DNA of 63,459 nt, counting the filler, from Bonamia ostreae (lineage: Eukaryota), in the NCBI GenBank assembly GCA_040357525.1. It is 35 parts of 35 records of this genome, joined end to end, with 100 filler letters (N's around TTAATTAATTAA, not from the genome) between each part and the next. Parts side by side here need not be neighbours in the genome. Positions count along the whole stretch, not along the records: positions 1,830 to 3,557 come from JBDODL010001393.1; positions 3,658 to 5,385 come from JBDODL010001394.1; positions 5,486 to 7,213 come from JBDODL010001395.1; positions 7,314 to 9,039 come from JBDODL010001396.1; positions 9,140 to 10,865 come from JBDODL010001397.1; positions 10,966 to 12,691 come from JBDODL010001398.1; positions 12,792 to 14,515 come from JBDODL010001399.1; positions 14,616 to 16,336 come from JBDODL010001400.1; 27 more parts are not named here. One strand, 5' to 3'. Numbering within the stretch: the first letter of the stretch is position 1; every line of letters starts with the position of its first letter. The notes below the pieces were generated by a model. That model did not search any database and was not told the DNA's origin. It saw only the letters and a program-made list of their open reading frames with translations. A program made the position numbers and the translations under genes. This document shows, piece by piece, positions 1,830 through 63,459 of this stretch.

Positions 1830-1995
1830 GTCGATAAAGATTTAAATCTCTCCACTTTCCAGTTCATCCTTTAAGAATGGACACATTTCTTACATTTTTT
1901 CGATGAAATGTTGTTTTGCATATCATCCATTTGAAATTTATTGCTAGTTTTAATTAGACGATTGCTTCAAATTTCGAACAAAATTTTTAAAAAGT

Positions 1996-2312
1996 TTATT
2001 TTGTTTCAAATTCCCATATTCGTTTGTCCAACGGACACAGGAACTTCTTCTTTTCTCTCAACCAATCGGCGATGCAATGAAAATGGAATATGTGCCCACA
2101 TATTCCTTTAGAAAGTCCGCATTGAGCTTTTTGGTCTTCATCAAGAACATGTGTGCATTTCAAACCTACATAAACGCTAATGACATAATCAAACATATTT
2201 CGTTGAGACTGTTTCTACAGATTGAACAATTTTCATTGAACAAATCGGATTCGACGAAAGCAACTGCATTCCATTTTTCTAATGTAAAAACTGAGTTTTT
2301 CGAACTCGACAT
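1996..2312 (-). CDS. RBX1: RING-box protein (RBX1/ROC1-like RING-H2), 2 exons; intron 2166-2194 (29 nt)
   Basis: The spliced product MSSSKNSVFTLEKWNAVAF...NCSICRNSLNEICLKC...GICGHIFHFHCIADWL...CPLDKRIWEF matches the RBX1 pattern KWNAVA..NCAICRN..C..C..GxCxHxFHxHCIxxWL..CPLD..W. Confidence 0.88.
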
Positions 2313-2344
2313 TTTTTATTACTGTTTATTGATATAATTCTTTA

Positions 2345-2620
2345 ATGGATTCCATCGCAGTTCTGAAAACTAAAGATTTGCCTAAAGAGACTGCCGTCAA
2401 ATATATCGAGAAATTTCTCAAAGTCCAAGTTTTCACAATATATTTTGTGAACGAGCTTTTATTCGGGACATGAACATTTTTTAATTTTTCACTTAACTGG
2501 AAAATTTAAAAATAGGAAAAGAAAACAGGTTTAAGCGGAAAGAGTCAAATAGAAACAAGAAATTTGGATAGATTAAAATTGATTAAGTCCAATGTCGAAA
2601 ACAACTGTGAAACGTCGTAA
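2345..2620 (+). CDS. Small 62-aa protein missed by the ORF track, 2 exons (intron 2429-2515); weak resemblance to Pol I subunit A14-like proteins
   Basis: ATG at 2345 and a GTTTTC...TAG intron give MDSIAVLKTKDLPKETAVKYIEKFLKVQEKKTGLSGKSQIETRNLDRLKLIKSNVENNCETS*. Confidence 0.55.
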
Positions 2621-2925
2621 TAAATATTTAATTTATCATTTTTTTAATTAAATATTTAAAACTGTAATTTTGCGTTTTTTACAATTTACAAACGATATAA
2701 AATCCAAATTATTTTACAAAAAAATGGTTAAACAACAACAGAAAATAATCTGATAAAATCGAAAAAAATAAAAAAAATCTGAACAAACAATAACAAAAAT
2801 CCGATAAAATTAAAAAAAACAGAAATAAATCTGAAAAAAATTAACGAACAGAATAAAAATTGAAAAAATTACAATTAAAAAAAATCGAAAAAAATAACAG
2901 AAAAATAAAAAAAAACAGAAAAAAA

Positions 2926-59025: not shown

Positions 59026-60229
59026 CGTTATAAATCACTAGGTCTTGCCTTAAAATATATGATGGTGTTAAGAAAGTAATGGTTTTTATGGATCAGAGTT
59101 TTTAAATTATTGACAAACATGCTGTATTTTTATACAAAATTTTAGGTAAATCAATACATGTTACAAGAATCAGCGTTCTCTTTGCAATAAATTAAACATA
59201 TTTACCGAATAGATGAATTTACAATAATGGGTAACATAGAAGTGATATTTGAATTGAATCGAAAATTCGTCTCATTACTAATCTATATAATAGAAATATT
59301 CTCCTCTATTTAAGGTGGCAGTGCCGTGGTCACTCAATTTCTGCTGTTTGAGAAAATAAATCAAACACATGGTATGTTCAAGTTCCTAACTTTACAAGGC
59401 CATGGATTATCATGTACCAAACCCCACACCCCCTGGATATCTGTGTAACTGAAAGTTAAAATAATGTAAGTGATATCATAACGTTCACGAACAATTTCAG
59501 TACACATATATAATTTTTAAATACAATGGTATGCATTAAAGATGCTTTACCACGAGAAATATAGTGAGAGACATGTTCTTTCCATTGTCTACCCATAGGT
59601 GTCGCTGCTATTAAATCACACTTACAATATTCTTGTAAACGCTTTGTAAAATGTTAAACAATAATTGAACTTAGCTAAATCAATTGAATGATCAAGAATT
59701 TAAAATGTGTTATTGCTTGTAAAGAAATTCCAGAAATTTTCGTTATAACCAACATAAAGCGTATTTGAAAGGTTTTGATATCTTACCTACATAAACCGTG
59801 AAGATAACGACCAGTCATCAATCAACTCATGCTATATAACTAATACAAATTACNNNNNNNNNNNNNNNNNNNNNNNNNNNNNNNNNNNNNNNNNNNNTTA
59901 ATTAATTAANNNNNNNNNNNNNNNNNNNNNNNNNNNNNNNNNNNNNNNNNNNNTATATTATCATGTAAACCTTTCAAAATCAAATCTACCATACTCTCTG
60001 CTGCTACTACCTGTTGACCTACTTCTACAAATATTTCTTATCGTATCTATGGAATTTTCAGCGAGGCTGCTTAAAAATTACATGTGTCCCTGATACGATT
60101 TAATCCAATGCATTATCTTCATATTCAAGATGTTTTACATTTTACCGCTGCACCACAGGAGAGAATGACAATCATAAGAATGTAGTAGTGTTTAATGAAA
60201 ATTGGTAGAGTATTTCGTTATATTGCGAC

Positions 60230-61545
60230 TTAGTATCTCGTTATATCGAGTCAGTATCTCACTATAACGAGTTTATGATCTCGTTATAACGAGTTTTTGT
60301 CTCGGTCTTACGGTCATTATATCGAGATTATTATTTCGTATAACAAGATTATAACAAATGAGTCAAATATCTCGTCATAACGACATAGCTAAATCGCTAT
60401 AACGAGAGACGTAACTTGTCATAACGAGATAACTTACGGATACAATTCAGGGTCTTATCTTCTACGTCCCGTTGAGAGGTCACCAGCTGTGGGTTGTTCC
60501 CGAAATTCAAGATTAGTTCTAAAACAAGTTGTAACTATGGTGCAATTACACATACTTAAACAAATTCATTAGTAAAATAAATCAAATATTTTTTCTTGAT
60601 TGATTTGCAGTTCTCAACATCTTACCATGTCAAATTTATCGACAAATCCGTCTCCATAATAATTTTAATTGCTTTTAAAAATAAAAATATGTTGTGAAAA
60701 ACTTCATCAACATGTATCGATTCACAGAAAATCTAATATGTGAATAAAGTCGATGGTTTACTTGAATAAATGGTCTTTTTCCGTGATGTTCTAACAAGAG
60801 CAATAAAACCAGGCTGCTGTGGGCTTGGTCGGCTCACTTTCCATTTAACGAATATTTTAAATGAAGCGTATTTAGTAATAATGTTCTGTGTCTGACAGAT
60901 GTCTGTCTGCTATTTTGTTTTATAATGATTATATCATTTATTGGGGAATTCACATCAGACTCTGCATCTAGCCGTGTTGATTTGTCGCTCATATATCGAT
61001 TCACCTGTCATTTTGACAATCCGATGTCGCAAATTCGACTACATAAAGTTATTAAACCAATAAGTAAAAATTATATTTATCATTTAAAATGATAAAAAAT
61101 AATTAAAATAATATACATTTTTCTTGGCAACGCAAACTCAATCCTTTTGATACATAAAATGCTAGTATATCGTTACTTATTCATTTGTTTGATGTAAGAT
61201 ATGAACATTTTCTCGTCATCTTTAACGTTTCCATAGATACCAACTCTTTATAACGACATAACTAACTCGTTATCACGAAATAGTACATGTAACTCGTTAA
61301 AGCGAGATGACTAACTAGTTATAAAGTGATAACTAACTCGTTATAAAGAGGTGATTAACTCGTTATCATGAGATACATGTAGGTAATTGTTAACTAACGA
61401 GATCATGAACTCGTTGAAACAAGATGACTAACTCTTTATAACGAAGTGATTAATTTGATATAACCAGATACTAACTCGTAATACCGAATTAGTTAACACG
61501 TTGTAACGAAATAACCCAGTCGTTTTAACGAGAGGATTATCTTTT
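60230..61545. repeat. Two clusters (about 60230-60430 and 61245-61545) of degenerate palindromic CTCGTTATAACGAG units at about 21-25 bp spacing
   Basis: Repeated ctcgttat(a)acgag variants separated by short AT-rich linkers. Confidence 0.75.
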
Positions 61546-61817
61546 CTTATTTTTAGCCTATACGAATTTCGTGAATAAAAATAGTGAAAAATTTTTTTTA
61601 CTAGTAGAAAATATCTTAAAATAAAGTTTGTCAAACAAGTCGTTATCACATACTAANNNNNNNNNNNNNNNNNNNNNNNNNNNNNNNNNNNNNNNNNNNN
61701 TTAATTAATTAANNNNNNNNNNNNNNNNNNNNNNNNNNNNNNNNNNNNNNNNNNNNAATATTTTTGCAGTTTTTTGATAGAAATAGTTTTCTAACAACAA
61801 ATTAAAAAAATTTAATT

Positions 61818-62855
61818 TTATCCAAATTTGTTCGAATGCGCAATAAAACTTATGAAGACGACCCAAGTCAAAGTCATCATACTAGCGACTGGAGCCTTTT
61901 TAATTTATCAAAGTAAAATTTTGTTTTCAGTAAATTTGATATTTTATAAAAGTTACTTGCAGAGGAACTGGGCAATATTTAAAATTGAAAAATTGAAAAA
62001 TCGGCATTACCAGAAAATCCACTGCGGACGTCAAAATGAATTTTCGGCCGGTTTCTTTCAGTGAAAAAGAACGGCCCTCCAGTCGATTTATCAAAACCAA
62101 AAACATAAACAACGAAAGCGGATCCATAAAAAGTTGGTCCACTGCAATTTGCCACAAAAGTTTTTTTGTTTGGTGTCTCGGAAATTTGTTTAAACTTATT
62201 TTGTGTAAAAAGGGGAACCACCTTTTTATTCATTTTTGTTTATTAAAAAATTTATTATTTTGTTTTTTGTTTTATTAAAATTTATTTTTTTCGTTTTTCG
62301 TTTTTATTAAATTTATTTTTTTCGTTTTTTTAAATTTATTTTTTTCGTTTTTTGTTTTTTTTTTAAATTATTTTATCGTTTTTTTATATTTTTTTTGTTT
62401 TTCGTTTTATTGAAATTTATTTTTTTTCTTTTTTGTTATTAAAATTTATTTTTTTCGTTTTTATTAAAATTTATTTTTTCGTTATTTGTTCTTATTAAAA
62501 AAATTATTTTTTCGTTTTTTTATTAAAATTTATTTTTCGTTTTTATTAAATTTATTATTTTGTTTTTATTAAATTAATTTTTTCGTTTTGTAGTAAAACC
62601 ATCCGGTTAAAGGTCCAGTAATACAGAAACCATAAAAAGCCATTGACATAATCCTTCTTTGGTCAATTCCATTATTTTCGATTTTCTGTGAAATATAATC
62701 ACCCAAAATATACAACGATCCCTAAATTTAAAAAAATTTAACCCCAAAAACTAAATTAGTTCGAATTGGATATTTGTCAAATTGATTTCTTATAAACCGA
62801 CCTTTTTTGATTAAACAATCTTTTGACCATTTAATTAAAATTCTAGTTATAAGTT
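61818..62855 (-). CDS. Mpv17/PMP22 family membrane protein, 4 exons; introns 62722-62742, 62222-62599 and about 61896-61956
   Basis: KYPIRTNLVFGGSLYILGDYISQ, DQRRIMSMAFYG...GP, IAVDQLFMDP, LEG and QFFNFKYCP...TWVVFISF. Confidence 0.88.
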
Positions 62856-63459
62856 TTATGACCATTTCTGGCTAAACTTATTGGTTAAATATAGTTTAAT
62901 ATTTTTGACATAATCTGAAATTTACATTTTTGAAAATGGCCGTTTAGAAATTTAAAATTTGATGCAAAATCGATTTATTTTTTCTCAAATTTGGACAACC
63001 AAAAATTCTTTTCCGCTTCAAGTTCAGCTCTTTCTCTCTAAATTTTAAAATTTTCAACTTTAATTTTGAGTTGTTCAGATTCGACTTGGATCGACAAAGA
63101 ATTTAATCTATTTTTTTCATTTCGGTAATTTTTGTTTTCGTTTTCCATTTTTTCCATTTTCTCAACCATTTTTAACATTTTTTGGCTAAATTTTTAAGAA
63201 AAAAAAAACTTTTGGTTTATTTGATTTTTGGCAAAATTTTGATTATTTTCGGCATTTTTTTCTGTTTTTGGAGTATTTTGATGTTTTATCTTTTAATTTT
63301 GAAATTCAAACTTTGTCGGAAATGTAATTTAGTCCTGATTGAATTCCTTCTTCGAAAACGTCTCCAAAGGCCGAAAATGGCAATTCTGAATAATCGTCTT
63401 CCAAATCAAATAAAATGTTTTTCTTTTTTTTTTAATTTTAACAAAAATTTTCGTTCCAA

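Follow-up and report, generated by a model that had tools for sequence, protein, structure and literature searches.

The introns found in a 63,459-nucleotide (nt) stretch of DNA from Bonamia ostreae (Haplosporida, Rhizaria; assembly GCA_040357525.1), hereafter the window, are probably ordinary GT-AG spliceosomal introns, mostly ultra-short, in which the AG is the only conserved 3' signal. The window is made of 35 contigs, referred to below as pieces, sorted by length from 1,729 down to 1,703 bases and with a GC content of about 30%; as these are merely joined by spacers of the form N44-TTAATTAATTAA-N44 (e.g. 1730-1829 and 45400-45499), distances and neighbourhoods across the spacers are meaningless. 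After corrections the curated set held 45 introns, 22 of which have outside support, three of them through contigs of the probable RNA run X4, ten through homology or Pfam continuity and nine through an NCBI gene model, while the reading frame is the sole basis of the remaining 23. Lengths of 19-33 nt account for 30 of the 45, and the mode, at 20-23 nt, is below 30 nt and places the set in the ultra-short class; the remainder range from 44 to 268 nt. This shortness, unremarked in the first-pass annotation made from the sequence of the window, is on its own sufficient to leave no room for a pyrimidine tract.

The comparison of run X4 with the DNA runs X1, X2 and X3 covers one contig, piece 25, and identified three stretches that are removed. 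Two of these, of 20 letters (44099-44118) and 23 letters (44807-44829), are exactly missing from X4 contigs and are retained in the DNA runs, in single contigs of X1 and X2 and in pieces of X3. For the third, the X4 loose end before 44278 is the same as window 44191-44205, so that X4 joins across 44206-44277. Gap placement is unambiguous for all three stretches, whose ends on the coding strand are GTTTTC..AAAAAG (20 nt), GTTTTC..GCTTAG (23 nt) and GTCTTT..AATTAG (72 nt). GT...AG termini are present in 45 of 45 curated introns as the method requires, given that both the gene finder and the threading of proteins demanded GT (or GC) and AG, and the three stretches missing from X4 have GT...AG ends without that constraint. 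Removal is precise and restores the frame: once the introns are taken out, reading frames and Pfam profiles are continuous. X4 is without cover at 45023-45312, so the 86-nt and 27-nt introns of the GPN gene fall outside this comparison.

Base composition at the splice sites

The pyrimidine tract is absent and the AG is the sole conserved signal at the 3' end. In the stretch from -15 to -4 the bases have frequencies of 0.48 (A), 0.38 (T), 0.09 (C) and 0.05 (G); pyrimidines together make up 0.47, the same as in the intron interior, where the values are 0.445 (A), 0.354 (T), 0.108 (C) and 0.094 (G). Over the final 25 nt of an intron, the longest unbroken series of pyrimidines has a median length of 4. 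The first-pass annotation had proposed the same absence, and had added to it an A-rich tract before the AG, of which a slight excess can be recognised (A 0.48-0.51 upstream of the AG against 0.445 in the interior) and a distinct tract cannot. Given that this rise is small and that the exons are also A-rich (A 0.39 versus T 0.27), the apparent tract is mostly a general excess of A on the sense strand. The U-rich 5' end described alongside it is the donor motif, GTTTT, with T at frequencies of 0.88, 0.77 and 0.65 at +3, +4 and +5, and no wider gradient of U is seen. Of all 45 introns, 24 start with GTTTT, and within the supported set the first four bases are GTTT in 17 of 22 (e.g. at 44118, 44807 and 55682). 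With GTTTT as the donor, and not GTAAGT, the GU would be all that a standard U1 5' end could pair with.

At -3, the base immediately before the AG, A is found in 22, T in 20, C in two and G in one of the 45 introns, in line with the earlier description of AAG and TAG as each making up about half; among the 22 supported introns there are 14 A, eight T and neither C nor G. The split between A and T matches the composition of the introns (binomial p=0.52; for the four bases at n=45, chi-square p=0.15) and, as the ratio is the one that composition predicts, the use of AAG is statistically explained by composition. The first-pass annotation had named two observations that would count against an unusual 3' site: an account of AAG by base composition, which the A:T ratio at -3 provides in part, and normal YAG usage with pyrimidine enrichment, which is not seen. 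In most eukaryotes A is disfavoured at -3. The Bonamia introns are unusual in that they do not avoid A at -3.

Given this agreement, composition might be all that shapes the 3' end: U2AF1 and U2AF2 would be present and would act on a degenerate or absent tract, with AAG and TAG mirroring neutral A/T-rich sequence. The chances of this are appreciable, if somewhat short of even. The A:T ratio at -3 and the closeness of -15 to -4 to the interior both argue for it, as does the retention of U2AF1 and U2AF2 in myxozoans that have a like pattern (PMC13644364). However, there are two difficulties: first, the tolerance of A at -3 is left unexplained. Second, in the X4-supported intron at 44807-44829 two internal AAGs are passed over and the terminal TAG is used, which points to a positional rule.

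Selection of the AG

In the explanation preferred here, of ordinary but very short introns, the donor GUUUU would be followed by about 15 bases of A/U-rich, G-poor filler that would also hold the branch adenosine, no more than about 12 bases from the AG. As the total is about 20 nt and five of these are used by the donor, there is no space for a tract between the branch point and the AG. Position -3 would drift with composition and take A or U in the proportions of the intron, with C rare because the introns are only about 11% C. We infer that the AG would be chosen by its short distance from the branch region or from the 5' site, an intron definition by length, rather than by a tract bound by U2AF65. 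Introns of up to 30 nt (n=29) carry at most 0.21 bit at every position between donor and AG. Inside these same introns (e.g. in piece 18) G is scarce, with 0-3 of 29 at most interior positions, and this depletion keeps competing internal AG and GT dinucleotides rare.

A number of points weigh against this explanation. Neither C nor G occurs at -3 among the 22 supported introns, which is fewer than composition would give (P=0.007; for C alone, P=0.08), and the position may be restricted to A or U rather than free. TAG is found at 20 of 45 used acceptors against 11 of 51 unused internal AGs, and a mild preference for U at -3 may persist. The TAA-type word near the AG, noted earlier as a possible branch point, is indeed frequent: 27 of 43 introns have a yTAA among their final 16 nt, compared with 16.9 in shuffles, which suggests such a role; but it is not distinctive, as the null is a mononucleotide one, AATT, ATTT and AAAA are enriched as much as yTAA, and no fixed position carries more than 0.2 bit. 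With only 45 introns, taken from 35 of several thousand contigs, all figures are limited by sample size; within this set, 23 introns have the reading frame and nine the gene model as their only basis, and the donor matrix of the gene finder was trained on its own output. Lastly, the RNA nature of run X4 is the guess of the tool, which labels it "RNA?"; the runs on record as containing the sequence are DNA runs, among them some labelled oyster metagenome, and no RNA run is listed.

An absent tract would also be expected if the 3' site were truly independent of U2AF65, as the first-pass annotation proposed, with U2AF2 lost or replaced (e.g. by a factor of the SPF45/RBM17 type) through reduction of the spliceosome in Ascetosporea. 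The mikrocytids, with a spliceosome of only 17-19 proteins and introns of 16-17 nt (PMC10245619), lend this some weight, as does the replacement of U2AF2 by RBM17 on human short introns in work cited in PMC12862383. Such independence is nevertheless unlikely in Bonamia: the window contains no splicing-factor gene and no small nuclear RNA (snRNA), a search of it against Rfam at the gathering threshold giving 0 matches and hence no U2 snRNA, and the losses of splicing genes are enriched at the ancestor of paramyxids and mikrocytids, with Bonamia unnamed in the available part of PMC11069148.

It is also conceivable that base pairing between a U-rich 5' end and an A-rich 3' end folds the intron and unites the splice sites, and the intron at 44099-44118 can be drawn by eye as a 5-bp hairpin. 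The introns of up to 35 nt (n=30) have, however, a mean minimum free energy of -0.13 kcal/mol and a mean z-score against shuffles of 0.03, and a 5' end forms 2.9 pairs on average with its own 3' end compared with 2.73 (standard deviation 0.16) with the 3' ends of other introns. These values contradict pairing of the ends, which is almost certainly not the means by which the sites are joined.

Support for individual introns

The gene finder was a small dynamic-programming one that combined codon usage, a donor matrix and intron length, with the AG alone as its acceptor model. Its output was 52 introns in 20 genes, 43 of which passed a filter for reading-frame necessity; early passes without a length prior gave few genes and spuriously long introns, and were abandoned. 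Joined open reading frames (ORFs) were not enriched for GT..AG over 16 alternative dinucleotide pairs or over 21 motif decoys, and such a count is uninformative because real junctions each admit many shifted decoys. Three NCBI Bonamia ostreae proteins are 100% identical to proteins encoded in the window, namely P0001 (GPN-loop GTPase 3, piece 25), P0097 (MHBO_003017, piece 18) and P0098 (MHBO_003029, piece 31). The NCBI models were made with funannotate, trained on published transcriptome reads (PMC11069148), and the nine introns given by the threading of P0097 were counted as gene-model support and not as a test of the present analysis. The introns discussed individually are listed in Table 1.

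Table 1. Positions, acceptors and support of individual introns in the window.
Length (nt)	Position	Strand	Gene	Acceptor	Support and remarks
20	44099..44118	-	WD40/THOC3-like gene	AAG	Absent from one X4 contig, present in X1-X3
72	44206..44277	-	Same WD40/THOC3-like gene	TAG	X4 loose end
23	44807..44829	+	GPN-loop GTPase 3	TAG	X4; P0001 model omits the stretch
86	45019..45104	+	GPN gene	TAG	ATP_bind_1 positions 10-72 and 73-119 on flanking exons; P0001 continuous
27	45251..45277	+	GPN gene	AAG	Pfam and homologue length; multiple of 3 without in-frame stop
20	16881..16900	+	MLH1	AAG	Mlh1_C continuity; frame tight on both sides
20	38922..38941	+	RRM protein	TAG	Downstream exon from RRM_1 position 4; frame tight; junction +/- a few residues
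136	30422..30557	+	F-actin capping protein alpha	AAG	F-actin_cap_A 1-47 and 59-97 on flanks; junction approximate
184	54984..55167	+	Importin-5-like	AAG	P0098 threading; P0099 alignment gap-free there
29	55221..55249	+	Importin-5-like	AAG	P0098, P0099, gene finder
63	55316..55378	+	Importin-5-like	AAG	P0098, P0099; gene finder read through; multiple of 3 without in-frame stop
151	55682..55832	+	Importin-5-like	AAG	P0098, P0099, gene finder
22	55911..55932	+	Importin-5-like	TAG	P0098, P0099, gene finder
20-30 (nine introns)	31092..32030	+	MHBO_003017	6 AAG, 3 TAG	P0097 exact threading; gene model only
	31092-31113, 31166-31185, 31378-31400, 31458-31482, 31530-31549	+	MHBO_003017, introns 1-5		P0097
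	31599-31628, 31761-31785, 31921-31941, 32007-32030	+	MHBO_003017, introns 6-9		P0097
21	49418..49438	+		AAG	Stop inside intron; downstream frame opens 9 nt before the AG
22	36500..36521	-		TAG	Reading frame only
114	57206..57319	+	GHMP-kinase-like	AAG	Reading frame only; outside the strict set

Pfam profiles are continuous across five junctions. In MLH1, the upstream exon closes at position 47 of Mlh1_C, in a match that is weak (E=0.11), and the profile resumes with position 52 at residue 4 of the downstream exon. In the GPN gene, the region left unspliced at 45251-45277 has 88 residues for 79 ATP_bind_1 positions, an excess of exactly the 9 codons of the stretch; comparison by eye shows that the spliced protein equals its homologues P0002 and P0003 in length at this point, whereas read-through gives 9 residues more. 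For the importin-5-like gene, P0098 threads exactly on piece 31 with the five intron ends given in Table 1, and the alignment with the homologue P0099, which comes from another assembly and is 41% identical, runs over 404 residues with two small gaps, none of them at the five junctions; a search for proteins of near length with the importin exon gave no match. The gene finder agrees with P0097 on seven of the nine introns of MHBO_003017. Being multiples of 3 without a stop, the 27-nt and 63-nt introns are hidden from gene finding based on reading frames, and retention of 45251-45277 or 55316-55378 adds 9 or 21 residues with the frame intact. Within the 151-nt intron at 55682-55832 an internal direct duplication of about 60 nt can be seen by eye, and longer introns may grow by tandem duplication.

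Eight acceptors with A or T at -3 had been singled out in the first-pass annotation, and five now have outside support: 44099 from X4, 45277 from Pfam and homologues, 16900 from Mlh1_C, and 55167 and 55378 from P0098 and P0099. For the other three, 49438, 36500 and 57319, the basis is the logic of the reading frame; at the last of these, the donor at 57206 has no in-phase AG nearer than 57319 and the closest alternative lies 114 nt downstream. The single CAG that had been reported, at 27687 on the minus strand, found no support, and the downstream frames close after 8-17 codons.

Several predictions of the gene finder were rejected. Those at 43803-43831 and 43727-43753 (both CAG) are covered gap-free by X4 contigs; that at 29911-30239 (CAG) fused two genes, of which CapZ-alpha has its own in-frame ATG; the acceptors at 31191 and 31950 (GAG and CAG) differ from the NCBI model P0097, which uses TAG at both; and an intron at 54984-55053, with an extra exon at 55054-55220, is contradicted by homology with P0099. 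Given that the finder over-predicted to this extent, with two introns contradicted by X4, one fusion of genes and two acceptors at odds with the NCBI model, the acceptors in general could be artefacts of the gene models. However, this is very unlikely for two reasons: first, every acceptor error identified in the gene-finder set, and every doubtful case, has C or G at -3 (CAG or GAG), never AAG or TAG. Second, 13 junctions are directly backed by X4 contigs and gap-free homology.

Some further features were observed beside these introns. X4 contigs follow the genome up to 45364 and then carry 15 different letters (45361-45399 region), which are in frame and extend the GPN protein as expected from its homologues. 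This departure and the in-frame continuation indicate a fourth X4-supported donor at 45361 (GTTTTC), the next exon starting with GTTT by chance and the acceptor lying beyond the end of the contig. One X4 contig (44278-44933) spans two divergent genes, which start at about 44682 (minus strand) and about 44759 (plus strand), some 76 nt apart, and this suggests that the two share an upstream region of very small size, that their transcripts overlap or that X4 includes some DNA. In pieces 4-9, 13, 19, 20, 23, 26, 29, 33 and 34 the finder placed no gene and there are few long ORFs; one of these gene-less contigs has an (AG)n microsatellite at about 6682-6700. Together they make up about a third of the contigs and may be non-coding DNA of Bonamia or contigs of another organism.

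Comparison with known systems

A canonical U2-type 3' site, with branch point, tract and YAG recognised by SF1 and U2AF65/35, has in common with the Bonamia introns that it begins with GT, ends in AG and has a region containing A before the AG. It differs in that Bonamia introns are without pyrimidine enrichment and have A at -3 in about half of cases and C in none of the 22 supported introns. The tiny introns of ciliates and nucleomorphs are A/T-rich with no room for a tract, the donors of ciliates being GTAA-like and their acceptors mainly TAG. They are of the same length class as those of Bonamia, at about 25 nt in Paramecium, 15-16 nt in Stentor and 18-21 nt in the chlorarachniophyte nucleomorph (PMC10245619).

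The nearest published counterpart of the pattern at the 3' end is in animals. Myxobolid myxozoans and Dicyema japonicum have ultra-short introns, with a median of 22-27 bp, and in D. japonicum and some myxozoans, as in Bonamia, the AG is the only 3' signal; a tract is either lacking or extremely short, and upstream there are a few A residues of weak conservation (PMC13644364). A fixed distance of the branch point from the 5' site is reported for myxozoans. U2AF1, U2AF2 and a U2 snRNA with a normal branch-pairing box are present in them, and their donor is GTa as against GTTTT in the rhizarian (PMC13644364).

The mikrocytids Mikrocytos mackini and Paramikrocytos canceri, relatives of Bonamia within Ascetosporea, likewise parasitise marine invertebrates and have introns of extreme shortness, at 16-17 nt (PMC10245619); on account of this length, Mikrocytos was rejected as a source of the window. 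Mikrocytids have few introns (224 in M. mackini), of which almost all measure exactly 16 nt, with a highly conserved sequence (PMC10245619), whereas those of Bonamia are many per gene (nine in one contig of 1.7 kb), of 19-33 nt with a tail to about 270 nt, and have almost no internal conservation. One could speculate that tiny introns with a GUUUU donor, no tract and a free A or U at -3 are an ancestral ascetosporean trait, and that Bonamia represents a numerous and loosely constrained stage that preceded the reduced spliceosome of the mikrocytids and their small number of fixed 16-nt introns, with the choice of the 3' site already independent of U2AF65 and set by distance from the 5' site or branch point; as a whole, this scenario is improbable.

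The main text of the genome paper speaks of "canonical introns", at about 2 per mRNA (PMC11069148), and a description of the splice signals of Bonamia was not found in full-text searches of the literature on introns of Ascetosporea and Haplosporidia and on tiny introns in general, which for the genome paper took in the main text. The present set places Bonamia among the eukaryotes with the shortest introns and links it to its mikrocytid relatives. In practical terms, default minimum intron lengths, or models of YAG and tract, in gene finders and spliced aligners will lead to mis-annotation of an economically important oyster pathogen, a case of which is the false CAG acceptors that a naive finder yielded here. 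Bonamia is, furthermore, a separate lineage that accepts A at -3 as readily as U, and offers a useful comparison for the requirements of U2AF35/65. In summary, tiny introns without a tract are a pattern already known from other lineages, to which Bonamia adds another, and what is peculiar to Bonamia is the GTTTT donor together with a fully equal use of AAG.

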